A stretch of 47,284 nucleotides of DNA. Source: Fimicolochytrium jonesii. Taxonomy: Eukaryota. Under the pieces are notes generated by a model. It was not told the origin of the DNA, did no database searches, and saw nothing but the letters and a program-made list of their open reading frames with translations. Shown in pieces: positions 811-39,722 of this stretch. The stretch spans positions 2,108,001 through 2,155,284 of the forward strand of contig NW_026515669.1 of the NCBI RefSeq assembly GCF_025526975.1, given 5' to 3'. A program made the position numbers and the translations under genes. Each line of letters begins with the position of its first letter. Position 1 is the first letter of the stretch.

Positions 811-1398
811 CTACAAGGCAAGGTTGACTACATTTGTACCCCGATCCAAGATGCTGTGAGCGCTTCTGGGTTTCAAGTGCAAACGGCATGGGCAGCTCCA
901 ATCACAAGGAGTCTCCCCATCCATGGCACAGTTGCCCATCAGCCAGTGGCATACCCGGTCATCCGAATCGCCCGCGTAATAAAACACCGAGGTGGCTTCC
1001 GGTGTCATGCACACCTCCCACCACGTCTCCTGGGGAACTCCCTCGTCCAACAACGTCACATCCGTGGTTGTCTCCACAATTAGCCCACAGTCATCCCGGA
1101 TGAGATATGTTTTCATCGACAACATTTTCTTGTCTGTGATGGGTATCGCAACTTTGAAGGCTTGTTGAGATCGTGTAGACGTTAAGGGCGACCTACTATC
1201 GGACGTAGTGATCGAGAAGTTGATATCCTTGACTCGGGCACGTCTTGTGAGGTGGTGACTGACAACAGCAGATGCCTTCTTGAAAAGCTCGCGACTGATA
1301 TCGGTTCTTCCTTGTATCAGGAGGAACTGGGGAAGGTCGTCCCACGATAGACGGTCAAAATACTTGTTCGAGATCTCTTGGGGAAAGGAGGTGGGCAT
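811..1398 (-). CDS. F-box-like N-terminus protein with C-terminal HWLxGxC...CDWxCPCRxHLKP motif (family 1, copy a)
   Basis: 195-aa intronless ORF. N-terminus FPQEISNKYFDRL resembles an F-box start. C-terminus CHWLMGNCAMDGETPCDWSCPCRLHLKPRSA aligns by eye with KHWLWGACALSESRDELCDWRCPCRDHLKPASA in 19252..20073. Confidence 0.65.
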   Translation of the reverse strand: MPTSFPQEISNKYFDRLSWDDLPQFLLIQGRTDISRELFKKASAVVSHHLTRRARVKDINFSITTSDSRSPLTSTRSQQAFKVAIPITDKKMLSMKTYLIRDDCGLIVETTTDVTLLDEGVPQETWWEVCMTPEATSVFYYAGDSDDRVCHWLMGNCAMDGETPCDWSCPCRLHLKPRSAHSILDRGTNVVNLAL

Positions 1399-3915
1399 TG
1401 TGGGTATCGTGAGGAGTGTGAAGTTTGCGGCTGTTCAAGATTGTGGGCAACCGAAGGGTGAAGGCCGACGTTGGGTTGGTCCCGGGAGAATGTTTGTGTA
1501 TGCAGCCAGCCCCAGGATGGTGGAACCAGAGACTGGTATATATATATGTACCTGCACCGTAGATTTGTCTTTCGGCCGTACCATGTCGCAGGACGGGGCT
1601 TGAGATCTCGGTTGCTCATGCTCACTTTATTGGCGTGACAGGAGATACGTCACTACCATGTGGACAAGCAAGGGTGCTCCCCGAAAGTTTTCTTGACGAG
1701 ACTTGGCATAGGACGGTTTGGTTATTCGCCGATAGCAGAAAGGGGATGGGGAATGAAGATAATGATAGTGACGGGGAGTGTAAACGGCAATTGGAAAGGG
1801 AAGGGGGGGGGGGGGTTCTGCTACGCGTCCCAAGATGATCACGAAACGCGTCCATAACAGGAGACTACGCTAAAGGGTGTAGCTCGCGGCACATTGCGGA
1901 CGATACACGCGTCAACAAGACACATTACTTTCTCCAAGCATCCAACCCGGTTGCACGCCCATTTCCCTGCGACTGCATGTTCGAAACAACGATCATCATT
2001 GATGTTTGATGTCCGGCGGACGGCACAAGCCACGGTCATTGTAGCTAGCCGGCATTGCAAGACCGGGACCCGCCCGACCACTCTCATCCCGGCTTGCGTC
2101 CGTTGGGTGTGGTCAAGAGATGCTGCACTCTGGGACTTCTGATTGAATCGTATGAACGTCCTGTATTGACGAGCGATTGGTAGGTACATGCTCGTAACTG
2201 GTACATTTGTTTTGGCACAGCGGGGACTATTTGGGTATGTTGCGGCCCCCCTGTCCACGGACGCCCCTTACGCCGTAGCTGTTTGCCAAGGGCTGTCCTG
2301 TGTTATCAAAGCGGCCCAAGTGGGGAGGAAACGAACATCGCCTCACAGGCTGGTGATTCATCCTTGCACCAGAGTCGAAGTTCTGTGTTTTGTTATGTTA
2401 CGGTGAATCCCTGCCTATCGCAACATAACATTTGCAGAGTAGCACTGGCTGTACAGATGGAGGTTAAGATATACGGTTCAGGAGGTCGTTTTCTTGTTAT
2501 GATATTATAGAGTATTTTTCATGCATACCTGCAAAGGTACAACCAGGAGCAGATCAATGTTGAGTTGAGAATCATAGTAACGTGACAGTAACTCGGCGAG
2601 GACAGCTAGCAAACCCCATTTGCTTCCAACCAGATTGGATATAGAGGAAACCGGATGTTATGATGGGTCGGTCATTAACATCTACATAACCATCATAACA
2701 TGAGAACATAAAAACACTCCGTAGCGTATCATGCATTTTCCCGTTGCTCCATCTGCTTGGGCTGTCACACCACTCACATCAGAGACAACATGGAGCCTGA
2801 CAAGGTTTATCTGTTCCGGAATATGGCAACACCATTGAGGGGCGTTATGTGATGAGGGATGCAAGATATCAGTCCCTCACCGCGTGTCACATCCGACGTT
2901 ACCTTCGACAGAGGGCCATACAAGCCCATACAGCTGGAAAAGGAGCAAACATAGTCCCGAACCTTCACCGCCATGTTCAATATCAATGCATCTCCGCCGG
3001 ATATCTTTCCAAGGCTACGACCGTCTTCCAGCCAGCTTTCCGATTTGACTCAGGAACCTATTCAGTGGACGGATGCAGTCAGATCACGTAAGTAAACCGA
3101 CCTTTGTCCCTTGCCTGCCATACAATATGACGAACGTCGCCGCTCGTGACCTCTATAGCCTCACAAGAAGCTTGAGGCTTCTAGCTTGCACGCTTTCGCA
3201 TCGACGATGAAGATTGGTCAATCGACGGCCATGCTCATTGCTGCTGCGCCAAAGGTCTTCTTTCCCACGACGACGCACTCTATCTTTTCGAGACGTTGAA
3301 ATTGGCTGCCTGGGTGTCGGTGCGTCGATAGGCATGTTGTGGCGAGAACATGGTGCTCAATTTAGCAACAGGGGTGAAATGATGCTCTGATTAGATCAAA
3401 GGAAATGAAACTTACAGGTGGAACAAGCCAAGCATAATACTACACTCGGGGCCTTGCCCTCTCCAAATCTAGACGGAACCAAACAGCGTGGTATGCGGCG
3501 TAGCTCCTTACCTGTATCAGATGTCTTTCTCTTCAGCCGGTTGCCTGATCAATTGGGTGCATTGTCCAATTGCTCAGATTTCCGATCCAGTGGTCTAACA
3601 ACCTGCTATTTTCGGCCACCACCGGAAATCGTGAAGCGCTCAATGATTTCGCGCTGTTGGTGAGAGTTGGTGAGACAGACACACTGCAGCTTTATTTGGC
3701 TCTTTCTACTTGGCTGCAAGTGCTTGAAATGCAATTACCTTTTTCAAGCTGATTTAAGGCCAGGGTTCATGGTCGCGTGTAGGCGTTGAGGACCAAAAGC
3801 AAAACCACCATTTGCAAACGTTCAAAGGCGTCCTCACCCCCGAGCGTTCGCGTTGTTCCTCTCGCACGAACGGTGTCTCTCCTGCTGTAAGCACATCCAC
3901 AGTACCGGAACCCGA

Positions 3916-5532
3916 ATGACACTCTTTCGTTTTCCTATTCTGCTACTTCTCTGCGGGTACTTGCTAGGTGGCGCCGCGGAACCCACCGCAGCGGATATTG
4001 CCGGCGCGGCTTTGGGTAGTCGAAAGGCCGCAGAGCAATATGCGGAAAGGCTCTTGTTCCGTAGCCATCAGGGACATGGCTTTGCCGCCGAACATGTCAA
4101 CAACTTCGTTGAGAACCATATGTCGGACCATACCTCTGCCGTCGTGGGGGGCAACAACGAGAGGAATGGTCCTGATCGTATCAGGACAGGAAGCCAGTTC
4201 CGTGGAGGCGCCCAGCGTGTGCAAGTCAAATACTGGAAGACGGGTCTCCTATCGGTTGTCGACTGCTTTGACCCGAAAACGGGACTCTTCATGTACCTAA
4301 ACGAGGACGGGACGCCTATGGTAATCGAAGTCGCCAAGGACAATTACGAGGCGGCGGTCGCCGCCATGAAGACAAGAATCATGCAAGGCAAGGTGCCTGG
4401 CGTGACCGATGTGGCTGCCGCGGAGAAGCTCAATTCCCGCGGGCATATTACGTATCTTCAAGCCAGAAACATTGCCCGTTTCGGAACCGTGGATGGGCTT
4501 TTCTTCGATGCGCAGACAGGAGCAGTCACATCGCTCGCTTCCGGGGGAATATCGATGTTCCTTACGTTCGCCGGAGATATATGGAAAGGAGAGGATTTCG
4601 ATAAAGCTAGCGGAAATGCCTTCCGCGCCGGAGGGAGGTCACTGAGCACTTCAATCTTCACGCATGTTCTATCCTCGCAAGTGGCTCGCTCTCGCATTGA
4701 ATTACTTCTCCGTCCTATGACGGATTCCGTGGTCAAAAAGCTAGGAGCGGCCACCGCTGCAACCATGGCCAGTACCGTTAGCGGCAAGACCATACACGGG
4801 GCCGCAGCGATGTCTCACATCTCGAAACTCATGAGAGGCACGATCGTTACAAACACCATCTCCACCACTATCATGTCATTGTGGGATGTCAAGCAGTACT
4901 ACAACAGTGAAATCGGCGGCGGGCAAGCAATCAAGAACATTGGAAAAACCGGTACTGGGGTGGCGGCAGGCGGAGCGGGTTGGACCGCCGGAGCTGCTTT
5001 GGGCGCAACCGTTGGGTCAGTCGTTCCTGGCCTCGGAACAGTGGTGGGAAGTGTCGTCGGCGGGGTAGTCGGTTCAGTAGTCAGCGGTCAGCTCGGGTCG
5101 CACGTTGCCGATGTCACCCAAACGAAAGTCTTCCGCATCAAGGACGACAATGCTGTCATGATGGACTACATCCACCAAGTCATTGAAGACTTGGCCAACA
5201 ATTATCTGCTGACGGAGGCGGAATTCGACATCTTGATGGACCATCTGAAGGGTGACATCTTGGAGTCCATCATGTCTGAGATGAAGAAAGCTAGGAAAGT
5301 GACCAAAATGGGAGACACCGCCCTTTCTCAGACCGCCAGACTTCACATCGAGCCTATTTTGGAAAGCATTAGAGAAAAGAATTTGGTCAAACGCTCTCTC
5401 CCAGAATCGGAGCCGGCGGACGGTACGAAAACCGGATTGGTGCTTGAATCCGCCTCGGAGAGAGAAGATTACTACCCCAAAGGTCAGACGGGACGGGCGT
5501 TGGGTGATGCCTTTGAGAATCTGTTCACATGA
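3916..5532 (+). CDS. Signal-peptide protein resembling the bacterial YeeR (CP4-44 inner-membrane protein) family, with glycine-zipper hydrophobic helices
   Basis: Intronless ORF 3853..5532; likely ATG at 3916 (MTLFRFPILLLLCGYLLGGAAE, signal-like). Motifs GHGFAAEHVN, NERNGPDRI, QVKY, PMVIEVAKDNYE, GKVPGVTD, ITYLQARNIARFG recalled from YeeR-type proteins. GxxxG-rich segment GAGWTAGAALGATVGSVVPGLGTVVGSVVGG. Confidence 0.7.
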   Translation: MTLFRFPILLLLCGYLLGGAAEPTAADIAGAALGSRKAAEQYAERLLFRSHQGHGFAAEHVNNFVENHMSDHTSAVVGGNNERNGPDRIRTGSQFRGGAQRVQVKYWKTGLLSVVDCFDPKTGLFMYLNEDGTPMVIEVAKDNYEAAVAAMKTRIMQGKVPGVTDVAAAEKLNSRGHITYLQARNIARFGTVDGLFFDAQTGAVTSLASGGISMFLTFAGDIWKGEDFDKASGNAFRAGGRSLSTSIFTHVLSSQVARSRIELLLRPMTDSVVKKLGAATAATMASTVSGKTIHGAAAMSHISKLMRGTIVTNTISTTIMSLWDVKQYYNSEIGGGQAIKNIGKTGTGVAAGGAGWTAGAALGATVGSVVPGLGTVVGSVVGGVVGSVVSGQLGSHVADVTQTKVFRIKDDNAVMMDYIHQVIEDLANNYLLTEAEFDILMDHLKGDILESIMSEMKKARKVTKMGDTALSQTARLHIEPILESIREKNLVKRSLPESEPADGTKTGLVLESASEREDYYPKGQTGRALGDAFENLFT

Positions 5533-7319: not shown

Positions 7320-8565
7320 TTAGAGCTCGCTATGATTCCACCAACTAAAAGGATTCCATGGCTTCCCAAAGTAATTATCGTAAGTGGATCTCCAAAACCA
7401 AGGCCGAACCCAGGACACCCATCCAAACCCAAAATAGAACATGATTATATCGAAGAGAGCCGTATATACGTCTTCCCTCTTGATCCCAAGTTTCATGCCC
7501 AGTGCTTGACCCAAAAGTATCGCTTCCCGCATGAATGCTGCTCGGTCCAAGTCGGACCCGTTCCATGACCCAAAACCCATGAAATCTTTCAATGCCGAAA
7601 GCCAGATAGGCAGCAGTTTCTCATACTTTTGCATGTCGGTCAGCTTTGGGTCAGCCCGGATCTCATTTGTCTTCTTGACGAATTCAGACGTGTAGGGTTC
7701 GGGCGATTCGATGGATGTCGTCCCTCCAACCCATCGGTTGGCCCGGATACGAGTTGCCATCGATCATCCTTCCGGCAAGGCTAACGTTGTACTGCACTTC
7801 CATCGACTTAACGATCTCTGATCGAGCATTCGCGGCCGTGTGCCACGCTATCGAGTCCTGAAGACTGAATTGTCAACAAACGACGGTTTCAATTGGACAA
7901 TGGCAAGATTGCTCTCGCAGCCTTCCATTACCTCCTTTTGATTGAAAAAAACGATCGCATTCTTCCAGAATTCCTTCCCGAGTGCCTTGGTGTAGCGGTC
8001 CAACCCTTTCTGTAATCCAATGTCAAGCCTGAACGACATGAGATGATGCATCAGTTTCAAAACATCCGTCGGAAGAGACGTCGCCCACTACCCACTTATT
8101 GTTGGTTCCTCGCATCACGAAAATGAATGCGTTCACTCCGTATTGCAGACTCAACATCGTATGGGCAATGTCTGTCATGATTACGCCTTCAGGCATGTCG
8201 GTCGCTTGAACGCCAGGTGTATCGATTAGGCGAAGACATCCTTGTGCAGTTTTGAATACTTCCATCTGCGTCTCGTTCGTACAAGCCTAAATTGCCAGTC
8301 AGGACACAACCTAACATCAGGCCCAATAGGTATGGTCGCCCCTTACCTTCGCCGTATCGCCTTCGGCAAAAACATGGCTTTTCTTCTCCATTGACCAAGT
8401 TGATTTGAGTTCGTAGATCCGGTTCGCGGTGGTGGATTTCCCAACGCCGGTCGATCCGATGAGCATGAGCACTGTGGCATCGACAGTGCCATTATCGCAC
8501 TTTGCCGCGTACACTGTGACGACGTGAAGCGTGTAGAATACCACGATGGAGGACCAGAACTGCAT
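7320..8565 (-). CDS. AIG1/GIMAP-like P-loop GTPase with signal peptide and hydrophobic C-terminus; 4 exons, apparent frameshift near 7700
   Basis: ATG 8565 (MQFWSSIVVFYTLHVVTVYA). G1 LIGSTGVGKSTTAN, G2 ACT, G3 LIDTPG, then AFIFV and ALGKEFWKNAIVFFN. GT-AG introns at 8346-8287, ~8095-8029 and ~7931-7858. The last exon changes frame between RIART and PYTSEFVK. Confidence 0.8.
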
Positions 8566-9349
8566 GGTCGTGATAGTGGCGGCTCTAGAACCTGGGACAC
8601 GCAGCTGCGTACTCAAGGGTGTCTGTTCCTGCAGGACCACGAAGAGACCCGAATCAAGTAGATACTCGATATCCCGCAGATAGAGCCAGACTAACAGTCC
8701 TGCGATTTGCGTTGACGCTTAGCACTGGACGATGCCGTGGGCGGCTTTCCAAAAGGCTCAGGGTCTAGGAAATCCCGACACATGTCTCCTTTTTGTCCGG
8801 AGTCAATAACCAAGGAGGTCCCTGGGATGAAGCGCTATATTATGCGATACACTCCAGATGAACAGGCCACTTTGCCAGCAGCTGAGGAATGGTATCTTCC
8901 TCCGACGTATGAAAGGGGCGCTTTGGTGGCGTAAAAGCATCGGATTTTCATTGTTCGCACGGCGGGAGATGCCCTCATTGTCCGGGGACACAATGAAATT
9001 GAGACAAGAGACATCGCCGGCGTGAACCTTGTTTCCCCGCGAATTCGATGCTTCCATATCCAGCACCCCTGGAGTGCCCCTCGTCTGATGTCATTGACCC
9101 ATCGAATATATCGGATCCACACACATGCCGGTGCGATTTCGAGGCGCGGTGAGTTGCACGGAAAAGGAACCGTTTCGACTCTGAAGGATATAATTGCAAC
9201 TTATGCTGCGGGCTTCAAATAAGCTCGCATTGAGTTCACCACACGCTGGCTTCGATCACCATTGCATCGCGTGGATCGCCAAGCTCGGGGGCAAACATTG
9301 ACCCGCTACAATCCTGTCATCCAACCCTCCTCCACCCGTCACCGCCACT

Positions 9350-12028: not shown

Positions 12029-12328
12029 TCAGGACGTCATATCATCAAAGTGGACGCTGCTTCCAGGCCAACACAACGGACAAGTCCCCGGTTCAATGTC
12101 AAGACTTTCAGAGTCCGAAATCCTGTCAGGGGTGTCATCGCCTTGCGGATAGGAATCGCCCGGTTCCAACAGCACGGTATGCTCATAGCGGATCTTCTTG
12201 ATTATGCGTGCACACTCGACGCACAGCTCGTGTCCACAGCTGGGCAACTTGACGATGAGTGGTTTGTTCTCATAACACACCCGGGGAGTGGCGGTGGGAG
12301 GATGGAGATAGTGGGGGAGGGCGGCCAA
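12029..12328 (-). pseudogene. Degenerate RING-finger protein
   Basis: (PRV)CYENKPLIVKLPSCGHELCVECAR...TCPLC is a C3HC4 RING pattern lacking the first Cys; upstream frames are broken. Confidence 0.55.
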
Positions 12329-12652
12329 TCCCGCAACTTCGATCTGTCCAGCGTCTGTCCGGGAGCCCGGACATTCCGGAGCGGGATATACGGTAGCTCC
12401 ACGACAGGTCCCTTGACTTTTCCCGTTCAGCTGTCAACGACACCGATTTCCGCGGCGTGAGGAGTCCCGTCCGCATTTCATTACGATCATCCTGTCCCTC
12501 GCCGTCAAAGTCCTTCCTGAGCCTCCGTCACTGATGGTTCGGAAGCGGCTCAAGTTTCGGACGGCCTTACTGCGTCAACGAGGGTAGTGCGTCCCCAGAA
12601 ACATTGAATTTATTTGTGGACCGACTCTAAACAACGCAACAAACTGTCGTCC

Positions 12653-13260: not shown

Positions 13261-13582
13261 GAAAAGTACCATTTGAGAATACCAGATCTTGCACTGCCTG
13301 GTATCTTGGTCTGGTAACTTCGCCGCGCGAAAACATCGAAAACGACTGTCGGAAATCGATTGCGGGGATCAGCTGGTAAATCTGGTATCTTCGGAACACC
13401 TTTCCGTTCTCAAGAAGTGACAGTGAAAAATTAAAAAAACTTTCCTCCTTTCAAATCTTCAGGTCAAAATCTTGAAATGAAAGTACCAAGTTACCAGATG
13501 CTCCACCCCACTCGACGAATTTGGCACTTTCGTGTGCCGAAGTTACCAGCAAATATACCAGCCATCTGGTAATCTGGTAAGT
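13261..13582. repeat. Origin-like module copy 1: 12 TACCA(G)/CTGGTA boxes in dyad symmetry around an AT-rich core
   Basis: Forward boxes at ~13267, 13280, 13484, 13492, 13544, 13556; reverse boxes at ~13298, 13311, 13373, 13382, 13566, 13574; AT-rich stretch ~13420-13480. Confidence 0.85.
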
Positions 13583-14021
13583 TTGGTTCCCAGGTACATT
13601 TCTGACAAACTAGTGCTGGCCAACACTCACGGCGGGGATTGATGGTAAGAAATAGCCAGAATCAATCGAGACCCTGCGTCAAAGTGGCCGGAACCCTCAG
13701 CATCCATGGGGGTCTGCCGAGCAACTTGATCTCCCGGCAAGCAACACCACCTCGCACAATGGATGAGGCAGCGGAGGCAGGGAGATGTCCAGGAATTCAA
13801 CGTACCGAAGCATTTCACCTCTCTACCTTCTACGCATGCACCCTGGTGAACTAGGGGGTCCCGCTTGCGTTTGAGAAGCTTAAAAGTTGACGCGACCTAT
13901 CATTGCTTTTAGCGCCACGGACGAAGTGGCGCTTGACTCAATGCCAAGCAAGCTCGCCAGACGCCGTGCCCGAAAGCCTGGGGCGTGCGGAGGACTACTT
14001 TAACATCGTTAATGGAATGGA

Positions 14022-14342
14022 GAAAGTACCAGATGTGCATACCAGAACCCCGACAGCCCTGGTATCTTATCCGGTATCTGCTCCGCGCGAAAACATCGAA
14101 AACGAGTCGAGAATATCGATTGCGCTACATCATCTGGTAACTTGGTAACTTCCAAAGCCATTTCTGTCACAGGAAAAGAAAGTGAGAAACAACAATCTCT
14201 TCTAATGGAATAATTCTCCAGATCAAAATCTTGATATGAAGTTACCAGATTACCAGATGCTATACGGCACTCGACTTTTCTGAAGCCTTCGTGTGCCGAA
14301 ACTACCAGCAAAGATACCAGCCGTCTGGTAATCTGGTAACTT
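14022..14342. repeat. Origin-like module copy 2 (diverged direct repeat of 13261..13582) directly upstream of the primase-helicase
   Basis: Same 12 boxes in the same order and nearly the same spacing. Shared blocks ccgcgcgaaaacatcgaaaacga, atcgattgcg, tcaaaatcttga, ttcgtgtgccgaa and tctggtaatctggtaa. Confidence 0.85.
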
Positions 14343-17300
14343 CGCCTCTGCGGTTTGGATGTGGAGCAGGGCAAGGGGATCGCATACAGGACATGGGCAA
14401 CTCGAGAAAGCAAACGCGTTTGAAACTCGAGAATAAAAAACGTTGCCCAAAGTTAGGCAATGAGGACGAGAATAAGATTGCGATGACAACTGACGCATAC
14501 AAAAGCTTGGTCAGGCAGTTGCGCATGGACAAGAGCTCCCAAGCACATCAGACGCACTTCAACTTCCCGGGCTTCACTGGAATATTTGCAAGGTTGAGCG
14601 TGCCCTCTGAAAAGGAGCGCAGGGATCTCTACGACATACTCTTCGCTGTGATTCAGCAGGCAGGTGACGACATTCGGGCGAGCCCATGCGTTCTGTGTGA
14701 ACGCATACCACAAGATGGTCGATTTCGACTGTTCTTCGATTGGGATGTGAAGCTTCACGAAGTCGGAACCGATGACGATATTTTGCTGACCAACCAAACC
14801 GTCGTGCAGGGAATCAGGGACGAACTTGTTGCATCCTACGGTGCCGATTATGGAGATACGCCTCTTCTGGTCTCTGTTGGCTGCGCCCAGAAAATTCATG
14901 TCAACTGTCCCGGCATTGTCGTGACGAAAGAAGTTGCGGTCTTCCTATGTGAGCGTTTGCGGGTACGACTGATCACAAAGGCATGTCTTGCAGTGGACAA
15001 AGCAGATAAGTGTCTCGACACTTCGGTCTACAATGGTCAGGGCCTCCGCCTGCTTGGATGTCACAAGGGAAGCAGCTTGAAAGGCGCCGATGTTGAGCCA
15101 TACGAAGCGCGATTCGGCGCTGGATCCTTCCGGTACGCTTATACCCCCGTGGACAGTGTTTCACTTGAGCGGCGCGCGATTCGGAGAGAGGATCTAGACG
15201 ACTACAGCATCATTCCACAGCCTCATGCAACAGTGACCTTGCTTTGTGACGAGGCTGATGGAGACCTTCAATCGCGTAGAACTGCGAAAGTCCCCCGACA
15301 AGCATTGAAGAGGGGAGTTTCAGCCGAGGAGAGCGACATGACAGTCGATTGCAACAGCAACACAGAGGTGTTTTCAGGACCGGAGTACAGCGCGGTGCTA
15401 GGGAAAGCGACCAGCTTTTTCTCCTCCCAGTACGGGCTGACGGAGCAGTTTCACTCGATCATTGTACAAAGGGCCAAGAAAGCTCTCATTTTCAGTACGA
15501 AGAGCCGCAGGTGCTACATCAAAGGCGATACCCACGGGAGCAACAATCCCTACATCGTCATCTCCAGCTATGGGTGTCGCTTCAAGTGTCCAAGCTTTGA
15601 ATGCAGTAAGGTGCCTACCCGGAGTATCCCTCTCTGCGATCTGCCGGAAGAGCTTTCGGAAGCGTACACGAAGGTCTTCCATGTGGAATCTTCAGACAAG
15701 GGAAGGAAGGCGTTTGCGTCTGGAGTTCGCGCCCTGGCAAAAACGCTCCCGAGTATGAACTTGAAGTTCAAGCCCGCAGAGGTTCGCAAAAGTGGAGTTG
15801 GCTGGGTGTGCGTGCTGCAGGAGAACACTCACTGTCCCAGTCATCAAAAGGAGCACGACCGTCCTGAGAACTATCTCATCGCGAATTCTAACGGGTGCTT
15901 TGTCGGCTGCAGGCAAGATCCTGCGCTGTTCTTTCCGTCCGGTGCTTCTGGTCTACAGCTGCCAAGCAGTGTGACCAACGTGCTCTTCCAGTATGTAGAC
16001 AAGCGCACCTTCATTGTTGACAGCGGGACTTTAGCGGGCAACACCCCATTCATAGACGAGATCAAAGACGAGACACAGCATTTCGAGGACGCGGAGGCCA
16101 ACCGGCTGTTCAAGAGTACATTTCGAGGAACGCACTCGGCGTACGCAAAGTACCTGTACCACTCTAAAGGCGCTCTCTTTATCTGCAATCGGGAAAGACA
16201 AGCTGCTTGGCACGTGTTCAACTGCCACCGCTGGAAGTATGACCCGGGCGCGGCATACCTAATGCGCTACCTCTCGTCCGATGAGAACCTCGAACCGTAC
16301 CTCAGAGCGCGCAAGCTCTACAGTCAGGGCGACGAGGTCTCATGGAAGATTGCGTTCAACATCGACAAGCTCATTACGAGCTTCCAAAACCATGGGAGCC
16401 AGCGGGGTTTTGTTGACGAATGTGCGTTGTTTTTCAACGAACGCAGCGATGAGCTCGAACGGAACCTGGATGGGAACCGGTATCTGATCGGTTTTGCCAA
16501 TGGGGTCTTTGACTTGAGGGAGCGCATGTTTCGAAAAGGGGAGCCGAACGACTATGTCAGCATGACTGTGCATTACGAGTACGGTGAGCCAATCGAAGAA
16601 GACGTCGGCGACGTGCTCGCCTTTATCAGCAAGATTCTTCCCGATGATGCGGTTCGCCACTACGTACTCAAGCTCCTGGGATCTTGTGTTTCTGGGGATA
16701 CTCGCGACGAAAAGTTCCATGTGTGGATCGGAGGCGGAGCGAACGGCAAGAGTACGCTGCTCTCGCTTGTCGCTGCGGCTCTGGGTCAGTACGCAGCTTC
16801 GATGAAGGCCACGATGTTGACCCAAAAGTCACCTCCCGCTGACAACGCAACTCCAGGAATGAACAAAGCAGTTGGGGCACGTATGGTTGCCATGCAGGAA
16901 ACAAACTCTGGCGAAAGCGTCAACGAATCGCTTCTGAAGAGCTCACTGGGTGGTGACAAGATAGACTACCGCCCATTGTTCAAAGAGGCGCGAGAGTTCT
17001 ATCCTCATTTCAAGATGATCCTCTGCACGAACAACCCCTTGACCATAAAAGGGACGGACCACGGAATCTGGCGGAAGATCCGAATGGTTCCTTTTGAAAG
17101 CCAGTTTGTGGCCAAGATTGGCAGGATAGCCCACAAGGAAGGAAACGCATCAGTTGAGCCCATCGAACACTTGATTCAAGATGCCCAAGGAGATGCTGTG
17201 TTTGAGATGGACAAGAGCGTTAAAGACAAGATCGACGGGCCTTGGAAAGTCGCTTTCATGCACATGCTTATACGATATTATTACGTGTGGCAGGAGGAGG

Positions 17301-17611
17301 GGCTTGACGAGGTCCCGGACAAAATCGCTCAATACAATCGGGACTACAAGGAATCACAAGATATGGTTGGGAAGTTCCTAGAAGAAAAGTGTCAAATCGG
17401 TGCAGAGTACAAGGTGCACAGCAAGCCGCTATGGGAAGCTTTCTTCGACTGGCAGAAGACTGAAGCCCACCAGATCCGTCAACACGACTTCAGCCAGAAG
17501 CTCAAGCGAGATTCAAGGTTCACCTACTCCAAAGGGGTTGATATTAACGGGAAGAACAGTTGTGGTTACGCTGGGCTTCAGGTAATTGGAACTGCGGCAG
17601 CGTGTATGTGA
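14291..17611 (+). CDS. AEP primase (NCLDV/herpes/PrimPol type) - Zn fingers - D5-like SF3 helicase - C-terminal winged helix fusion
   Basis: 1106-aa intronless ORF; likely ATG 14393 or 14483. AEP motifs FRLFFDWDVK, KIHVNCPG and LDTSVY..GLRLLGCHK. Two Cys/His clusters: CYIKGDTHGSN..CRFKC..C and CPSHQKEHDR..CFVGC. D5_N LIGFANGVFDL..FRKGEPNDYVSM. Walker A GGGANGKS, Walker B VAMQE, motif C LCTN, DHGIWRKIRMVPF. C-terminus FLEEKC..LWEAFFDW..FSQKLK..GYAGLQ. Confidence 0.95.
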   Translation: MCRNYQQRYQPSGNLVTSPLRFGCGAGQGDRIQDMGNSRKQTRLKLENKKRCPKLGNEDENKIAMTTDAYKSLVRQLRMDKSSQAHQTHFNFPGFTGIFARLSVPSEKERRDLYDILFAVIQQAGDDIRASPCVLCERIPQDGRFRLFFDWDVKLHEVGTDDDILLTNQTVVQGIRDELVASYGADYGDTPLLVSVGCAQKIHVNCPGIVVTKEVAVFLCERLRVRLITKACLAVDKADKCLDTSVYNGQGLRLLGCHKGSSLKGADVEPYEARFGAGSFRYAYTPVDSVSLERRAIRREDLDDYSIIPQPHATVTLLCDEADGDLQSRRTAKVPRQALKRGVSAEESDMTVDCNSNTEVFSGPEYSAVLGKATSFFSSQYGLTEQFHSIIVQRAKKALIFSTKSRRCYIKGDTHGSNNPYIVISSYGCRFKCPSFECSKVPTRSIPLCDLPEELSEAYTKVFHVESSDKGRKAFASGVRALAKTLPSMNLKFKPAEVRKSGVGWVCVLQENTHCPSHQKEHDRPENYLIANSNGCFVGCRQDPALFFPSGASGLQLPSSVTNVLFQYVDKRTFIVDSGTLAGNTPFIDEIKDETQHFEDAEANRLFKSTFRGTHSAYAKYLYHSKGALFICNRERQAAWHVFNCHRWKYDPGAAYLMRYLSSDENLEPYLRARKLYSQGDEVSWKIAFNIDKLITSFQNHGSQRGFVDECALFFNERSDELERNLDGNRYLIGFANGVFDLRERMFRKGEPNDYVSMTVHYEYGEPIEEDVGDVLAFISKILPDDAVRHYVLKLLGSCVSGDTRDEKFHVWIGGGANGKSTLLSLVAAALGQYAASMKATMLTQKSPPADNATPGMNKAVGARMVAMQETNSGESVNESLLKSSLGGDKIDYRPLFKEAREFYPHFKMILCTNNPLTIKGTDHGIWRKIRMVPFESQFVAKIGRIAHKEGNASVEPIEHLIQDAQGDAVFEMDKSVKDKIDGPWKVAFMHMLIRYYYVWQEEGLDEVPDKIAQYNRDYKESQDMVGKFLEEKCQIGAEYKVHSKPLWEAFFDWQKTEAHQIRQHDFSQKLKRDSRFTYSKGVDINGKNSCGYAGLQVIGTAAACM

Positions 17612-21347: not shown

Positions 21348-21626
21348 ATGAATATCTATCCTCCTCCTGGATTGGGACCGTCGCCTACAGGAACGGGACC
21401 GTCGCAATTCTGGCTACGGAGCGCTCTGACTACGGCTCTTGATATACCAGGCGACCACGGTGATTTGGAAGTATTCAGTTATGTGGTCGAAAGCTATATT
21501 GGTCAACTTGCATCAACCGCAATTGGTGGCTCAAGCCTGGATCTCACAGTCAATATCTTCCGTTTGGCAGGCACATCGCAACTCTATATACCCGGCTCGA
21601 ATGCCAGTGCATTGCGAACTACTTGA
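21348..21626 (+). CDS. Unknown small protein or gene fragment (family 3, copy a)
   Basis: ALDIPGDHGDLEVFSYVVESYI..LDLTVNIF..SQLYIPGSNA matches 38094..38447. Confidence 0.5.
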   Translation: MNIYPPPGLGPSPTGTGPSQFWLRSALTTALDIPGDHGDLEVFSYVVESYIGQLASTAIGGSSLDLTVNIFRLAGTSQLYIPGSNASALRTT

Positions 21627-22949
21627 TGGCCCGCGCCAAAAGATTATTTCCCGCAGCATCGCTGAAGATAACGAAGCTTCCCTTGCATACTATCCTTGAA
21701 GTTGGTCGGACGCGGAGCCGAGGGTGAAATCTAGTAACCCCATATACCTCTTCACGTCTCAGCATCTCAGCACCTGTCTTTCGCACATGCTTTCACTTTC
21801 CGACCATCCAAGTGGCCGTTGTTTTATTCCATAGCTTCAGCACATGATTGTCATTAGCGTTTGCTGGTTTTGCGGCGTTGGCTTGGGCATTTGTCTGTGG
21901 TATGCCTCGTAAATCGTCCCTCTTGTTCGAAGAAGGTTCGATCGAAAATCCTGACCAGGAACCAGAAGCGAAGCTCGGGCAATCCCAAGTGCCAATCATC
22001 CTCCCAGTCTTGCTCCCAAAAATGGACCGAAGTTACGTTGTCCCCTTGATTCTGCGTCGATGATGCGCGGAGTATGCTACAATGGGCGCCCTCGCTCATG
22101 CATGTCGGCACGGAGCCAAACAGCGTTGGACCGCCGGTGTGGCTACGTATCTAGAATATCAACTATCGCGCGTAGGACAGGTTCCGCTTTGTATTCTTTT
22201 TGATTAAACCCGTTTTGACACAGCAAAGGAGCGTGGCCAAGCTGTGGTGGTGGCATGAAGACACTCCCAACGTGCATTTCGTCGCCACCGTACATTAAAG
22301 ATCTATCCGGTCGATTGGCTGCTCGGAGCCACATCTGCAGACTTTCCATCGGCTGCTCCGCTCCTCCTACTTTCCATCGGCAAAGTATGTACGACCAAGG
22401 AAAGAATATTCCCCTGTTGTTATATTCCGCTGGGGCATACGGTCCTATTGGTCCCGAGCTATATTCTTACGACTGCCGGTAACGCTTGGGTCGTCGACGC
22501 GGCAGCCCCTTGCTCAAGTCGCACAACATGGGTCAATGATGTGAGTGAGGCCCGGCATTCGCATCCAGAAAGTACTCCTTGCATAAAGCAAGAGAAATTG
22601 CGCTCTTGATAAAAGATCCATGACTCGGACCAGCTAACCCCGCTACTGCATCGGTAAACACATCATTTTCTCGTTGTTGCACATTGGTTCTATTCTCATT
22701 TTCTCCTTCTAGCTCCGAGCGGGCTCAAGATGGTCAGCCGGGTTCCCTTAAACATGAGCAAACGGAGTGCAGCTCTCAAAGATGCAAACCCCAGAAGCAC
22801 TCAGCGGTGCCACTCAATATCACACGTTTGTCATAATCTGCCACCAGATTCCCCGTCATTTTGAGTATGGTGTGGGGGATGGAACGATCAGCCTTCCCCA
22901 AAAAGAAAAGCCTATATACAAGTAGCTTGGTCAGAGCCGGGCCTCAAGA

Positions 22950-23564
22950 ATGTTCATTTATCATACAAGCATATGGCTTCTTCTCCTGATAGCACTATGT
23001 GTCCTATGGGCTGCGCCTCCTGCACTTGCATGGGAATGGCACAAGGGCTGGAACGAGACCGGCCAGCGGAAAAGTCCCGAAGAGGACCCCAAACCTATAG
23101 CTGGAGCTGGCATCCAGCATGACTTCAACGCGATATCTCGCCGCATTCCAGGCAGTAATGCCGTGCCTGTTTTCCGTCGCTTACTTTGTGGTATGAGACC
23201 AGGCTCCGATGGGGAAGGCGCTATGTACATATTCAGGAATGGTCTGCAACATAGATACTCGATGGATGAGGACCGCTGGAAAGTGGGATGCACCAGCCTC
23301 AAGGTGGGAGTGAAGAAACGCTTGGCGCAATGGGGAAGACAGTGTGGCCGCTCGCCTGTGCTGATCGGTGAATGGAAGGTCAAGCACCACAGATTATGTG
23401 AGAACTTGATACATTCCGAGCTGAAGTTGAAGGGTAAGTGGCTGGGAAACGTCCAATGTGAGTGCAGAACCCAGAAAGGCCATTGCGAGTGGTTCCGGGG
23501 CCCGTTAGCTGACCTTCAGGAAACCATCGGATTCTGGGTGAACTACGTGAATCAACACTATTGA
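22950..23564 (+). CDS. T5orf172/MUG113 (GIY-YIG superfamily) domain protein with N-terminal signal-like peptide
   Basis: GAMYIF...WKVGCT...KRLAQWGRQC...ENLIHSELK...CECRTQKGHCEWF. N-terminus IWLLLLIALCVLWAAPPALA. TATA-like ctatataca at ~22912. Confidence 0.85.
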   Translation: MFIYHTSIWLLLLIALCVLWAAPPALAWEWHKGWNETGQRKSPEEDPKPIAGAGIQHDFNAISRRIPGSNAVPVFRRLLCGMRPGSDGEGAMYIFRNGLQHRYSMDEDRWKVGCTSLKVGVKKRLAQWGRQCGRSPVLIGEWKVKHHRLCENLIHSELKLKGKWLGNVQCECRTQKGHCEWFRGPLADLQETIGFWVNYVNQHY

Positions 23565-30136: not shown

Positions 30137-31724
30137 TTACTTCGTCGTTGCGGGGGGGACATTTTGAATATCCGGCATCGGAAATTTTATCGTGCCCTGT
30201 GATTGGCTCAGGGTAACATTTGCCACGCCCACAGCTTGAGATTGCCGGCGGAGCAGATGCTTGTCGATGTGCAAAATTTCTTGACGGAGCAATGTCCGAA
30301 ATCCTTCCAATGCCCTCACCCGTTCCTCCAACTCCGCAAAGCTCACCTTATCAGGGGAACTGACCGAGTTTGTCACAATTGTATATTGGCTGCTAACCCA
30401 CTTACGTGGCGAAAGTAACCGTTGCTGGAATAGACCTTGCAGAAACGAGTGCCGACAATGAGCATGATATTCTATCTTTATATCCTCATGCAAGTACGGT
30501 CTTGTGGTGCTTACCATGTGTTCTATACATGCCCAGTCCGAAACAGATGGTGAGGAGGGAGGTGATGGGACCGAACGGAGCGGATATACTGTTGATGATG
30601 TCAGTGGCTTTCTGGGTTCCGATTTCTTTTTGAACAATCGTATATCGTGGGCCCGAGTTCAGAATGATAGCAGTAAGATTCCCGTTGTTTCCGCGATCGA
30701 CGTTCAATCCCGTGAAAGATGATGTCGAATACAGTTGGTAAAAGTATTCCGTTCGCGGTTCCTGAATCCTCTATCATCGCGAAATCATTATGAGGGGACT
30801 GCATATCGACAGGGATGGTATTGACCTTCCGCAGTTCTTCACCTTCGAAATGAAATCAGGCCAAAAGCTTGCCCAGGGTCCCGGATATTCAGTATATTGA
30901 ACCATTGTCAACTGCAAGTTCTGCACATTTCCCACGCCCCCAGCTGACGTTTGAAGAATGTTGGGGCGCTTCGCTAATCGGGGAATATTCAACAGATCTT
31001 CCGGATCAGAACTTGGATATTGAACATTTTCGCTGAATCGCGGGTCAATGTATCGAGATCCTGAGTGTAACACTTGTCAGGTCGTCCCCCAAAGATTCCG
31101 CAATTGGCCCACTGTCATTACCAAAAATGGATGCTTGAATGGAGAGGGTGATGTCTGACGAAGTGTACATCATCAATTGAAAGGGTTCTGACCGGATCCT
31201 GCCCGTCTCTGCGATGCTTCACTGTGAGGGGCCCGATTCGAAGAGCTTTGGTATCAAAGGGTACTTGCCTGTAGGATCCAATTGCACAAACGTACAGTTG
31301 ATAGTTGGCGCCCGAGTGCACGGTTTGATCAGAGTGCTAACTTCAAACACAGACTTCAAAGGATCTGTTGACCCTCCGGGAGATACGGAAACAGTCGTCG
31401 CGTAATTGGTTGTATCGCCGACCCAATTGAAACCAATGTTCGGAGCTGTTGGCGAATTTCCTTGGACGAAGATGACAATGGCTGCGGAGAATATCCATAT
31501 GCACGCACATTAGCTGCGGAGTAGGCCCTCAGCGATGGAAATGCGCACTCACGAGGGAGATGGAAAGCCCCTGTCTCTGTATCGTAATACGTGCTGATCA
31601 CCGTTCCTTGATGGGCATACGAGTAGATGGTCGATGTAACATAGAGGCACCAAACCGTCCCCAAGATGAGCCAGACAATGGCCTTTGCCTGACTCACCGT
31701 TAACGGAATCTTGAGGGACTTCAT
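30137..31724 (-). CDS. Multi-exon membrane protein with two TM helices and a large extracellular loop
   Basis: ATG 31724 with TM IVWLILGTVWCLYV. Intron at ~31552-31483 (GTGAGT..CAG). Second TM IINSISAPFGPITSLLTICFGLG. C-terminal LEERVRALE coiled segment. The ORF pieces are joined by putative introns. Confidence 0.6.
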
Positions 31725-32883
31725 TCCTACATATAAAGCGGCAATCAGTAAGATCGCTGTATACGGGATGGGTAGAATCTAGCCGCTGTCACTTGGCCAG
31801 ATGTGAGAACAGGACTCCTTGCAATTGCAAGATCCAGTTGCACCATCACGCGATGCGATAGCAATTTTGACAGCACGCTTTGTAGAAACTCTCAGGCTTT
31901 GGGCATTCCAGGATACACCGTCGCGGAGAATGTCGGGGAAACCTCCGGATCGGCAGGGGGCCACAGATCGCGAGCATCTTCAGTTGTTCTACAAAGAAAA
32001 CCCACGAACCTTACTTTCCCCACCCCTGTGTTATTCTAATAATTTGAAGTAAAATACAACCGCACATTCTGGTCCGAAAGTTGGTACCCATCCCCGGTTA
32101 AGTAGGTGTCAGACAAGCTGCACTAGTTTGCGATATCACCATGAGGACTGCCCAAACTAGTGTGACAACCCCTTTTTCCGCCCGCATCGCCACTGGCACT
32201 CTTGGCGGTTCAAGTACGGTCTCCGCCGGAACGCAAGTATCTCTAACACCGAAAAAGTTTCGGGGTTTTTAACCAAGTATTGAGTGAGGCTAGAAAGAAA
32301 TCATTCGGGGGACACCTCGTTGTCGGGCAGATTCAAATAGAATGAGGAATTATCATAACGTATCGCCAGGATCTCCCTCCTTCCTGCTATTTTCGCGCAC
32401 TCCATATTCAATGTAGGGCCACACATTCATCGCTCAACAATTTATCGCAGTTCGTTAGGTGTTACAACACACCGCTCGCAGGACGGTTTGTTAAGCACTC
32501 AGTGCAAGGAGGGCATTTCCCAAGGATTAAAGGACTGCGTCTCAATTGTTGGTTATGACGGTTTTTTTTATCACAAGGCAAGCGGCAGGTTGCTTCCTGA
32601 CAAATGTAGTGGAAAACGTCATGGCCAATAGCGATGGATGAAGGCTGCCATTAGCTTCATAGCGAGAATGTGGCATGCGATCCAGAAGGTGCGGCTTGCA
32701 GGGGCCTATATCATCGGCGTTGTGGAACGTCCCTATTCCTATGTGCTCCATTCAAATCATTTGCAAGTTCGCTCCTGCCCAGTGACGAGCTTGGCCGCCG
32801 GGGCTCGCTCGAATTCAATCTCCCAGTTTGCAAACCCATGAGCTCGGGGGTCTGCACACGGATTCAGTTGCCGAGGCCGCATG

Positions 32884-32904
32884 GGGTTAGGGTTAGGGTT
32901 GGGG
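32884..32904 (+). repeat. Interstitial telomere-repeat relic
   Basis: gggttagggttagggttgggg in the same orientation as the terminal array. Confidence 0.75.
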
Positions 32905-34912: not shown

Positions 34913-35111
34913 AATGGGAGCCTCGGCGGCGGGGGCCGTCCACGTAGCAACCGCGCTTGCAGTTCTTTTTATTTCTGAAAGATATAGGTAACAAACAAGG
35001 CGAGATACAGTAAGTTGATCAAATGGACCGTCCAGTCAAAGATATGCTTCGAGCATACATCAGCACTCACACATCTGTGCAAAAGTTGCATGCTGCCGTC
35101 AGAGCCAACCA

Positions 35112-35401
35112 TGCTGGAAGATCGGTTGCACCGGAGCTGGAGTTGGAATCAGTAAGCGCCTACAACAATGGGCAAAAAGTTGCGGCCATGCTCCCGAGCT
35201 GATGGTCAATGGAGAGTCAAGAGGCACAGATTTTGCAAGAACCTCATTCACACCGAGCTGAAGGCCCAAGGTAAATGGTTGGGAAAAATCAGCTGTGGTT
35301 GCAGAACATCAAAAAAACACTGTGAGTGGTTCTCTGGGACCCTACAAGACATGCTGGAAGCCATTTCGTTCTGGGTGCAATATGTGAACCGACATCACTA
35401 A
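35112..35401 (+). pseudogene. Frameshifted T5orf172/GIY-YIG paralogue of 22950..23564
   Basis: WKIGCTGAGVGISKRLQQWAKSCGHAPEL, frameshift near 35200, then GQWRVKRHRFCKNLIHTELKAQGKWLG..HCEWF..FWVQYVNRHH. Confidence 0.85.
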
Positions 35402-35557: not shown

Positions 35558-35779
35558 TCACTGTTGTAGATAGTAAGGCACAATCGTATCGTCATCTCTC
35601 TACACCCGGTACTTCCCGATGTCTACTATCTGAACGTTGCCCTTTGAGAGAAGCGGGGCGATTCGATTTTCTAAAGCTTTCCTTTCCGCTTTGACGGCCT
35701 TCAGTTTGTTCTGCAGCTCCTTTATGGAGAAGTGCGCGCTGAGATACAACCGCACATGTCTGAAAACCTGTTTGTCCAT
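35558..35779 (-). pseudogene. DUF5760-like small coiled-coil protein with an in-frame stop (family 4, copy a)
   Basis: Manual translation MDKQVFRHVRLYLSAHFSIKELQNKLKAVKAERKALENRIAPLLSKGNVQIVDIGKYRV*RDDDTIVPYYLQQ (TAG at 35600-35602), colinear with 39147..39512. Not in the ORF track. Confidence 0.7.
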
Positions 35780-35938: not shown

Positions 35939-35957
35939 CACAGCACTTGTAATCATC

Positions 35958-36242
35958 ATGAAACAGAGATACTCCTATCACGCGAGCCTCATATGGGCAG
36001 GATGCTCTCCGAGCTCTGTGGAGGCGGAGAGTCTCAGGGCATTGTCGAAAGTGCTTGGCCTATCCGTGAATACTATCATACGCATCCTCAAAGAAGGCGA
36101 CCACTGCAGGACAGGCAAACGTGTTACCATTGAGCGGCGCCCACAAACAGATGCAGCCCTGGTTCTGTCCCTTCAATACCACTGGTCTCCAGGCCACCAG
36201 AAGATCCAACAGCTATCGCATCACATAGCTCTGACGCACTAG
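35958..36242 (+). CDS. Small NUMOD1-like HTH protein (family 2, copy b)
   Basis: RYSYHASL...EAESLRALSKVLGLSVNTIIRIL...VTIER aligns with 12653..12877. Confidence 0.6.
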   Translation: MKQRYSYHASLIWAGCSPSSVEAESLRALSKVLGLSVNTIIRILKEGDHCRTGKRVTIERRPQTDAALVLSLQYHWSPGHQKIQQLSHHIALTH

Positions 36243-37072: not shown

Positions 37073-37190
37073 CTAGATCCCATTCCGAGCTACCAACTCC
37101 GTATGATTACCAAGCTCCGCAATCCGCCCCCCTTGAACCACTGCAATCTGGTCCACATTCTTGATTGTGGATAGCCTATGCGCATGGTAA
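37073..37190 (-). pseudogene. C-terminal fragment of an ABCB/MDR-type ABC transporter nucleotide-binding domain
   Basis: [36 protein letters not shown] is the H-loop tail typical of ABCB transporters; the rest of the domain is absent. Confidence 0.8.
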
Positions 37191-37754: not shown

Positions 37755-37813
37755 AGGTCTAAGGGCGTAAGGGTTAGGGTTAGGAACAGGGTTAGTGAAC
37801 GCGTAGGGGTTAA
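37755..37813 (+). repeat. Degenerate interstitial telomere-repeat relic
   Basis: taagggcgtaagggttagggttaggaacagggttagtgaacgcgtaggggttaa. Confidence 0.65.
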
Positions 37814-38093
37814 GCCAGGTATGTGGTTGGACGTGCTCTCGTGCTCTCCGTTGATGTTTATTCTTAGGGTGGTTGAATGGCATTGATTTGGTAGTGGCTT
37901 GTGATAGGTTCGTTCAGGTTCAGTATGATCAACGGCCGCCGCATAAGCGTCTCTCCCTCCTCCATGTGGGTCTGCAGGGCATCACATGGAGAATACGGAC
38001 GGATGTGTCCGTTTCCAATAGCGATAGAAGTGGGAATAGCGAGTCTTACCGAGAGACAGCAGTACAGCCTTTATCATGTCCTTGATTATCTCC

Positions 38094-38447
38094 TCACACG
38101 GCACGACCAACGCCGAGGACTACATGGGTGGGAAGCCTTGTGATATGCAATCTTGCTGCAGGAAAGCTGTGGGAAACGCATGATACCAGGGTATCAGCCA
38201 CAGCATCGGCGTTTGGACCGGGTATATGAAGCTCGGATCTATTCTCCATATAGAACAGGTTGACAGTTATGTCAAGGTGTGTCATCCCTGTTGCGAGGAC
38301 ACCCAACAGCCGAACGTAGCATTCAACCATGAAGGTGAACATTTCCGGGTCCCCATGGTGTCCTGCTATAGTCAAAGCTGCACTCAAAGAGTTGCAGGAC
38401 TGGCGTCCCTCTTGAGAGTTGCCGCTGAAGCTGTTCATATTGTTCAT
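38094..38447 (-). CDS. Unknown small protein (family 3, copy b)
   Basis: ALTIAGHHGDPEMFTFMVECYV..LDITVNLF..SELHIPGPNA; paralogue of 21348..21626. Confidence 0.55.
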   Translation of the reverse strand: MNNMNSFSGNSQEGRQSCNSLSAALTIAGHHGDPEMFTFMVECYVRLLGVLATGMTHLDITVNLFYMENRSELHIPGPNADAVADTLVSCVSHSFPAARLHITRLPTHVVLGVGRAV

Positions 38448-39146
38448 GTTTGTTTCACGTGCGACGCTGAAGGTTGCAAAGGGATGTTTCTATCTTGATA
38501 CAGTACAAATGGATTAAAATGTGACCCGCAAACGCACTTAGCTGCTTCATCTCCGAACTGCAATCCGGCCATGGAACTAAAAGGTACAGCTCGGGTTGGT
38601 CATCGGCCCTTCTCTTTTGACTGGTGAATCGGTGTATGGAGGGAGATCATCCAATCTCACAGCGTGTGGGGTTGCTGAGCACGCGGCTGCAGGGATAGCT
38701 GCACTAACCACCCATGCTTTCCCTGCTTCAAGGATCTCGTTCGGAACAAGCAGCACGATGTGGCCTGCGGGAACATGGCAGTACCGTCCACCCCAAGGCG
38801 CGGCGTATCCTGGTAAGCTAGCTGTTGTCACAGTATCTGAAGGTGGGATAGACATGGCTTTCGAGCCGTTCAGAATGGGACGGAGGATATGATCTGAGGC
38901 GCAGCAGCCTTTCCGTCGCTAGTTGCCGTGTATACCAAGTCCGCTCACTGACACATTCTGACAGCGCGTCACAAACGCGCGGCAAGAAGTGTACGCTATA
39001 CAGTCTCCTGCCCCATTCCGTTGAACGTTGGACAAACGTAGCTTCAGTGCGACGGGAATCCCCGAGATAGAAAACAAGAAGCGTTTCGAACTTTTTTTTT
39101 CTATCTCTATGAAAAACAAAGGTATCACCTTCTTTCTGAAGAAAAC

Positions 39147-39512
39147 ATGCACTTTGGAGACACTGATAGATCGGTCACTGAGGAAAGAGACCTTGGAGGA
39201 CTCATCAATACTCCAAACACTAAGCAACTGCTTCGAGAGTTTATCGAAGTTCATTTGATGGTGCGTGATCTTCAACGGCGCTTGAAAGATGCCAAAAGTA
39301 GTCGGCAAGCAGTGGAAAAGGACCTGGCGCAGGTCTTTACTGAGGCGGAGGTTCAGACGGTCGACATCCCGGGCTTTCGTTTATACCGGTACGATCAACG
39401 GCTGGTTCCGTACCATCTGCCTAGGCGACCGAACACTTGCACCACCGTGAAGCAAACCACGCACGCTGGTAGAAAACGCATGTGTAGAAGCCTCCTGAAG
39501 TTCCGGCTCTAG
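39147..39512 (+). CDS. DUF5760-like small coiled-coil protein (family 4, copy b); last gene before the telomere
   Basis: LLREFIEVHLMVRDLQRRLKDAKSSRQAVEKDLAQVFTEAEVQTVDIPGFRL resembles the giant-virus DUF5760 pattern (recalled, not searched). Paralogue at 35558..35779. Confidence 0.6.
   Translation: MHFGDTDRSVTEERDLGGLINTPNTKQLLREFIEVHLMVRDLQRRLKDAKSSRQAVEKDLAQVFTEAEVQTVDIPGFRLYRYDQRLVPYHLPRRPNTCTTVKQTTHAGRKRMCRSLLKFRL

Positions 39513-39690: not shown

Positions 39691-39722
<32 letters not shown>

Follow-up and report, generated by a model that had tools for sequence, protein, structure and literature searches.

A stretch of 47,284 nucleotides from the chytrid Fimicolochytrium jonesii (assembly GCF_025526975.1, 2.16-Mb contig NW_026515669.1, positions 2,108,001 to 2,155,284 of the forward strand; hereafter the window) was analyzed for the genes of a putative mobile element. 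The window harbors an intact gene for a primase-helicase, a doubled array of short opposed repeats directly upstream of it, and families of small genes and gene relics that occupy three blocks (0.8-3.3, 12-23.6 and 34.4-39.7 kb). The host-like stretches in between carry split AIG1-type GTPases and secreted-protein genes, and from 39691 onward the window is terminated by TTAGGG arrays.

The primase-helicase gene and its relatives

In the primase-helicase, the motifs of the archaeo-eukaryotic primase (AEP) domain and the Walker motifs of the superfamily 3 (SF3) helicase are intact. The protein matched the Pfam profiles D5_N, DUF5906 and, weakly, AEP_C962R, and passed TIGR01613 with 152.9 bits (cut-off 108.7). 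Its best match in the PDB was C962R of African swine fever virus (ASFV; E 7e-19). The C-terminus is likely to form a winged helix; in this part it is 46% identical to its relative from a soil metagenome (L001, the one metagenome locus found), in which the Pox_D5 profile passes (24.7 bits, cut-off 21.4).

The closest named homologues came from chytrids, namely Geranomyces (71% identity, four members in one cluster), Thoreauomyces (66%, truncated) and Fimicolochytrium; the soil protein shares 47% and the protein P0005 35%. On alignment these relatives are domain mosaics: P0005 shares the AEP domain only (63% there vs 15-34% elsewhere), and P0117 shares the helicase (75%) and the C-terminus, not the AEP domain (19%). 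In a quick tree of 79 rows, which carries long-branch warnings and excluded helicase matches of at most 170 amino acids (aa) and all but four of the near-identical proteins of 590-592 aa, the helicases of the window, Geranomyces and the soil locus formed one clade (SH-aLRT 99). This clade was placed inside the AEP_C962R/PriCT_2-type group (SH-aLRT 98), apart from phage-type proteins. Scans of IMG/VR yielded no relative of the primase. A 22-aa primase-like match at 37.3 kb of the window (E 8e-4) was not recovered by homologues and was dismissed as chance.

According to PMC11296320 (Table S13), distant primase-helicase homologues occur in several chytrid genera. The same table lists a second Geranomyces primase-helicase, HDU90_004304, of the type found in Polinton-like viruses (PLVs). 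Its locus tag is seven away from that of the close homologue HDU90_004311, which hints at a clustering of such elements.

An array of opposed repeats beside the primase-helicase gene

Upstream of the gene lie two cassettes of about 330 bp, 760 bp apart and 75% identical to each other, with TACCAG repeats in both orientations around an AT-rich gap (Table 1). Twenty of the 38 TACCAG sites of positions 1-39690 fall within 13280-14338; the densest hexamer reached ten copies per 350 bp, compared with at most seven in 100 shuffles. This iteron-like putative origin had been missed by the original prediction made for this DNA and appears to be the strongest sign of a replicon.

A comparable array is present in the soil relative, where 12 repeats with the same core start 68 bp after the primase gene and are arranged six and six around a 100-bp gap. 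The spacings between repeats are 8, 64, 12, 9 and 8 in L001 vs 8, 52, 12, 10 and 8 in the window. In cassette 1, cassette 2 and L001, 10, 10 and 12 repeats surround gaps of 100-110 bp with an AT content of up to 70-75%. A second set of opposed repeats (AAAGGGCC, eight copies) follows the array of L001 at 13277-13421. On a 13-kb contig of Geranomyces, the protein model P0113 comprises a member of the small-gene family 3 (see below), a stretch that resembles the array in translation, the primase and a helix-turn-helix (HTH) protein, in that order. The family 3 part reached z 11.6-14.4 (against P0122 and P0124, its score was equalled by none of 2000 shuffles; the profile gave E 0.003), and the translated-array stretch reached z about 10.

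A layout pattern derived from the window and L001 matched four IMG/VR contigs, which represent three independent loci as two are near-identical, and in all four a phage primase-helicase gene ends 3-13 bp before the start of the array. In one phage locus (L071, 7499-10115), a T5orf172-HTH gene immediately precedes a Toprim/AAA_25 primase-helicase and a TTACCA array, a gene set that echoes that of the window.

Families of small genes

Five small-gene families had been claimed by the original prediction to recur in the window as diverged, intronless paralogues, and all listed open reading frames (ORFs) and relics were found in place (Table 1). Four of the families are indeed paralogous, with 2-3 copies each: T5orf172, family 3, a coiled-coil family (labelled DUF5760-like) and the HTH family. 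The T5orf172 copies at 22950 and 35112 are 59% identical over 75 aa (E 8e-27), the family 3 copies at 21348 and 38094 46% over 68 aa (E 6e-17), and the coiled-coil copies at 39147 and 35558 33% over 81 aa (E 2e-11); the HTH copies at 12653 and 35958 scored z 7.6, which was reached in none of 500 shuffles. The F-box-like trio is weaker. The ORFs at 811 and 19252 have only a 40-aa C-terminal Cys motif in common (52%, E 6e-9), and the ORF at 34433 shows no detectable relation to them: its scores against the two (23 and 30) were not significant, and its membership of family 3 or of the Cys-motif group was rejected. A sixth family had been overlooked (22380-22540 and 38660-38855, z 13.9). It adjoins family 3 in both blocks with the order swapped.

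Table 1. Positions of genes, relics and repeats in the window (strand: +, forward; -, reverse;., not stranded).
Feature	Position	Strand	Remarks
Orphan ORF, 195 aa	811..1398	-	C-terminal Cys motif in common with 19252; F-box label unconfirmed
HTH family, third copy, frameshifted	3109..3245	+	Found by profile search
RING-finger relic, single copy	12029..12433	-	Pfam RING E 7e-4 to 1e-3, below cut-off
HTH gene, intact, 74 aa	12653..12877	+	67% over 75 aa to tail of Geranomyces model P0113
Putative origin cassette 1	13263..13600	.	10 TACCAG repeats, both orientations, 5+5 around 110-bp AT-rich gap
Putative origin cassette 2	14023..14345	.	10 TACCAG repeats, 4+6 around 109-bp AT-rich gap
AEP primase/two Cys-His clusters/D5_N/SF3 helicase, intact	14393..17611	+	Annotated start 14483
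Orphan ORF, 273 aa	19252..20073	+	Acidic tract; Cys motif in common with 811
Family 3 copy	21348..21709	+	Frameshift near 21610
Family 6 relic, conserved core only	22380..22540	+	
T5orf172 (GIY-YIG-type nuclease) ORF, intact	22950..23564	+	Pfam E 2e-12; hydrophobic N-terminal extension
Internal telomere seed	32884..32897	+	Likely former chromosome end
Orphan ORF, 159 aa	34433..34912	+	Upstream motifs in common with other small genes
Coiled-coil family, third copy, truncated	35023..35110	+	Fused to T5orf172 relic
T5orf172 relic, 5'-truncated, frameshifted	35112..35401	+	
Coiled-coil family, short type, one internal stop	35558..35779	-	57/73 residues identical to intact metagenome protein P0133
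HTH family copy, divergent	35958..36242	+	Pfam HTH_36 E 0.007, below cut-off
Host ABCB transporter, C-terminus fragment	37076..37189	-	Within distal block; E 3e-16 to ABCB19
Second internal telomere seed	37771..37784	+	
Family 3 gene, intact, small alpha/beta protein	38094..38447	-	Homologues P0122 (Thoreauomyces), P0124; model pLDDT 76.6
Family 6 copy	38660..38855	-	
Coiled-coil family gene, intact, long type	39147..39512	+	68% to Geranomyces HDU87_001712; DUF5760 label unconfirmed
First long TTAGGG array	39691..40015	+	Abuts distal block directly

Among the domain labels that had been assigned, T5orf172 (PF10544) was upheld, as both copies clear the Pfam gathering score of 20 bits (47.8 and 27.1 bits). 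The RING relic, which has no listed ATG-led ORF of at least 80 aa, stayed below the cut-off, and Pfam gave no F-box match in any of the three F-box-like ORFs, no NUMOD1 match for the HTH family and no DUF5760 match in any of six coiled-coil family members, five of which matched DUF7307 weakly (best E 0.003). A fold search with family 3 lacked specificity (best Z 7.4, and nothing in BFVD at E 0.001), and four of the six profile matches of this family were ankyrin/TPR repeats and were discarded. No homologue of the 19252 ORF was found among 1678 candidates. Neither IMG/VR scans (T5orf172, coiled-coil family, HTH) nor GenBank phages (T5orf172, P0133) yielded a match. Atlas features of the 811 ORF lay at 0.83-0.85 to NCLDV (nucleocytoplasmic large DNA virus) hypothetical and F-box clusters (0.83-0.84 for F-box). 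For the intact HTH protein at 12653, which is likely a DNA-binding regulator, the Atlas neighbours were small viral proteins (0.89-0.90) and NUMOD-like clusters (0.81-0.84; within these clusters 10-32% carry NUMOD1); we regard these values as leads only.

With regard to the remaining claims, no copy appears to need an intron, and the copies are diverged. In all ten comparisons within the window, the proportion of synonymous differences (pS 0.53-1.0, silent sites mostly near saturation) exceeded that of non-synonymous ones (pN 0.24-0.51), with a pN/pS ratio that is biased low because the alignments were chosen by protein similarity. The broken coiled-coil copy at 35558 shares 57 of 73 residues with the metagenome protein P0133 vs 37% identity to its window neighbour at 39147. 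Therefore, the copies seem to have split long ago as working genes and to have met here later. The comparisons support a divergence of these pairs under selection, not through local duplication and decay, and several copies evidently broke after they had diverged as working genes.

Two upstream motifs recur among the small genes. The motif AAGTGCGTT lies 77-92 bp before three starts in both blocks (5 sites vs 0.36 expected), and TTTCTGAARR occurs six times (0.73 expected), never outside the distal block; the odds for both are overstated because the motifs were picked post hoc.

A putative origin-initiator module of a mobile element

Taken together, the sequences suggest that the primase-helicase and the doubled array are probably the initiator and the origin of a chytrid mobile element of PLV or satellite type, with the small repeated genes as probable accessory genes of it and remnants of kindred elements. 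A model is offered by the Staphylococcus aureus pathogenicity islands (SaPIs), whose origins are described in two reports as 6-12 opposed iterons with an AT-rich centre beside rep, bound by a C-terminal winged helix (PMC9371898, bioRxiv 10.64898/2026.10.17.759575). By this analogy it is likely that the window module works as an origin-initiator pair of the SaPI kind. By analogy with SaPI Rep, the predicted C-terminal winged helix of the primase would recognise the repeats. Two hexamers would then be loaded that melt the AT-rich gap and prime synthesis, and host polymerases would extend the primed strands; the HTH protein may regulate the module. Since the relatives differ in gene order, in the position of the origin and even in the domains of the primase, such elements evidently recombine. 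Fragments of several relatives could have accumulated in this subtelomere through insertion as well as ectopic recombination; new telomere repeats would have capped them, and most would since have decayed.

From the DNA of the window, the element is not assignable to PLVs, NCLDVs or mriyaviruses. Within the SaPI-like interpretation, a PLV relic whose capsid genes were lost or lie elsewhere is quite possible, if somewhat short of probable. More speculative, and in our view less likely than not, is the idea of capsid-less, self-replicating nuclear elements of chytrids as a eukaryotic counterpart of the phage satellites SaPI and P4. Their D5 primase-helicase would load itself on a conserved iteron origin and would swap domains and accessory genes with relatives; the elements might live as parasites of fungal giant viruses or PLVs and would be captured at chromosome ends. 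If true, this would provide a sequence-defined origin for a eukaryotic D5-family enzyme.

How the D5-type primase-helicases of PLVs and giant viruses locate their origin is a question that an array of 330 bp beside an intact gene makes testable. Further, the array could yield a minimal replicon for chytrid genetics and might serve as a DNA signature for elements that capsid-based surveys overlook.

Several observations weigh against an origin-initiator module of a mobile element, in addition to the bias of pN/pS given above. No A32-like ATPase, tyrosine recombinase or RVE integrase, or polymerase was found in 242 of the 248 window frames of at least 62 aa and 31 ORFs. Pfam and PHROG scans of the window and L001, made with general and not PLV-specific profiles, gave no capsid match, and 20 ORFs of L001 (22.8 kb of the 29.8-kb contig) were free of capsid genes and of genes for an ATPase, an integrase or a polymerase. 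Neither block is flanked by a long inverted repeat, no relic of the primase or the origin was found in the distal block, and L001 has none of the seven small families that were searched. The GC content of all blocks is 50-53%, the same as that of the flanking host-like DNA. Pfam detected no Pox_D5 match in the C-terminus of the window primase, and the Geranomyces array is deduced from a protein model, not from DNA. Further, a looser repeat pattern gave 68 loci, five of which lie 70-80 bp after a primase-helicase gene, and in prokaryote genomes three of 53 pattern matches were near a detected primase-helicase, the rest being mostly 8-bp tandem repeats. Because of these control matches (3/53 and 5/68) the repeat motif alone is not diagnostic; it is the place of the array beside the primase, seen in two lineages and presumed in a third, that carries the argument.

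Alternative explanations

The original prediction had attributed the blocks to a virus-like accessory gene pool of primase-helicase elements that repeatedly land at this chromosome end, with reference to giant viruses. As for the pool, family 3 and the HTH family are linked with a primase in Geranomyces P0113 (primase 71%, HTH 67%), while for T5orf172, the F-box-like ORFs, RING and the coiled-coil family such a linkage was not shown in other genomes. The giant-virus source was not borne out, D5 being the only core gene found, and we consider it unlikely that an endogenised giant virus (Mycodnaviridae or another NCLDV) once lay here and has left its remains scattered over the blocks, with D5 and small accessory genes as the survivors. 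This explanation would account for the placement of the helicase among AEP_C962R/PriCT_2-type proteins, which comes from a tree with long-branch warnings, and for ASFV C962R as the best structural match. Integration of giant viruses in zoosporic fungi and mobile D5-T5orf172 pairs in NCLDVs are also reported (PMC13533422 and PMC11296320, respectively). The soil relative carries giant-virus-style cargo, comprising a dynamin-like GTPase, a polynucleotide kinase-like protein, GNAT and GIY-YIG proteins and a tRNA array. However, MCP (major capsid protein), PolB, A32 and VLTF3 had no Pfam match within the window, the primase, the coiled-coil family and the HTH family lack relatives in IMG/VR, and the family 3-origin-primase-HTH module is compact, fitting on a 13-kb contig. 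A comparison of 23 window ORFs with PHROGs likewise gave no capsid, ATPase, integrase or polymerase. The HUH endonuclease, MCP and VLTF2/3 that characterize mriyaviruses (PMC11253617) were not detected by Pfam, with general profiles only, in the window or L001. With capsid, ATPase, polymerase and integrase genes and terminal repeats all undetected, the data establish neither a giant virus nor a complete PLV.

It is still less probable that segmental duplication spread the small genes as subtelomeric families of the host and that the primase-helicase is a domesticated telomere-linked helicase. The subtelomeric position and host-like GC, the host fragments and internal telomere seeds of the distal block, the split GTPase and secreted-protein genes between the blocks, and the origin of all named homologues from chytrids would fit such an explanation, but silent sites are mostly near saturation even between neighbouring copies, gene order and origin position vary between genera, the primase domains are mosaic, and the gene-dense soil relative has the same origin. 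A reading in which the TACCAG arrays serve not as an origin but as operator or promoter sites for the HTH protein, with the module a passive relic, is very improbable. The array does lie upstream of the primase in the window and in Geranomyces, with an HTH gene close by; in L001, however, it follows the primase, and a gene of the HTH family was not found there. Moreover, the quasi-palindromic arrangement of opposed repeats on either side of an AT-rich gap agrees with that of SaPI origins.

Comparison with known systems

PLVs, MELD viruses and giant viruses have all been described from chytrids (PMC7805220, PMC8502044, PMC5294986, PMC13533422, bioRxiv 10.64898/2026.06.19.733378 and 10.1101/2023.10.16.562556). 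An AEP-SF3 primase-helicase is a common replicase of PLVs, and replication modules are often swapped (PMC7805220, PMC8502044, bioRxiv 10.64898/2026.06.19.733378). The window shares with the PLVs and MELD viruses of the Spizellomyces punctatus group and Powellomyces the host group, the endogenous state and the AEP-SF3 replicase. It differs in that no capsid, A32 ATPase, integrase or terminal inverted repeat was detected and that its putative origin is an internal iteron array, whereas terminal repeats are proposed as PLV origins in PMC11296320. In common with SaPI PriRep and P4, the window has a fused primase-SF3 helicase (TIGR01613) and 10-12 opposed repeats around an AT-rich gap of about 100 bp. 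In contrast to these, it lies in a eukaryotic nuclear chromosome, its origin is upstream of the gene and duplicated, no integrase or att site was found, and its helicase groups apart from the phage-type proteins.

The D5-T5orf172 modules of entomopoxviruses and other NCLDVs, regarded as mobile (PMC11296320), likewise have a D5-like helicase near T5orf172, nearby repeats and a location at genome ends. The window differs from them by its position in a host chromosome and the 5.3 kb between T5orf172 and the helicase; the available part of that account describes no iteron array. Mycodnaviridae, which integrate in the chromosomes of zoosporic fungi according to PMC13533422, resemble the window in host group, D5 primase-helicase and chromosomal integration; the window, however, has D5 only, spans tens of kb instead of 80-350 kb and shows no compositional contrast with the host. 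Searches of the literature, with incomplete coverage, brought up no description of this family and none of a eukaryotic D5 gene with an adjacent iteron origin.

The chromosome end and other features

The internal telomere seeds at 32884 and 37771, the ABCB fragment and the immediate junction between the distal block and the array at 39691 suggest that the distal end was built by stepwise additions and telomere healing. Recombination among subtelomeres fits this structure as well as targeted insertion does, so the repeated landing of elements at the chromosome end was not substantiated. At 39556-39691 two opposed TTTCTGAAAG motifs precede a frame of 27 codons (start 39612) that runs into the telomere array and is possibly a gene cut by telomere addition. 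The region 39691-47284 consists of subtelomeric units with TTAGGG arrays between them and is depleted in CpG (observed/expected 0.53). It includes a 1.9-kb stretch repeated at 98%, in which an ORF (41057-41692, 43323-43865) encodes a Zn ribbon at its C-terminus.

The cargo of L001 also includes duplicated small genes. At 14121-14575 of that locus, about four tandem tRNA-like copies lie on the minus strand with one backbone and differing anticodon arms, and one copy was identified by ARAGORN as tRNA-Glu.

Elsewhere in the window, an intronless 538-aa ORF at 3916-5532 has a hydrophobic N-terminus and glycine-rich helices and matches phage tail proteins and PdsO by composition only. Two divergent AIG1-like GTPase genes, split across frames (7320-8718 and 9350-10708), are likely intron-containing host genes. 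Positions 24499-26975 encode, in tandem, two beta-rich proteins that are related to each other (27% over 117 aa), unannotated and without a Pfam or PDB match, and a 42-bp inverted repeat (86%) at 27466-27507 and 31694-31735 marks the starts of two short related ORFs.

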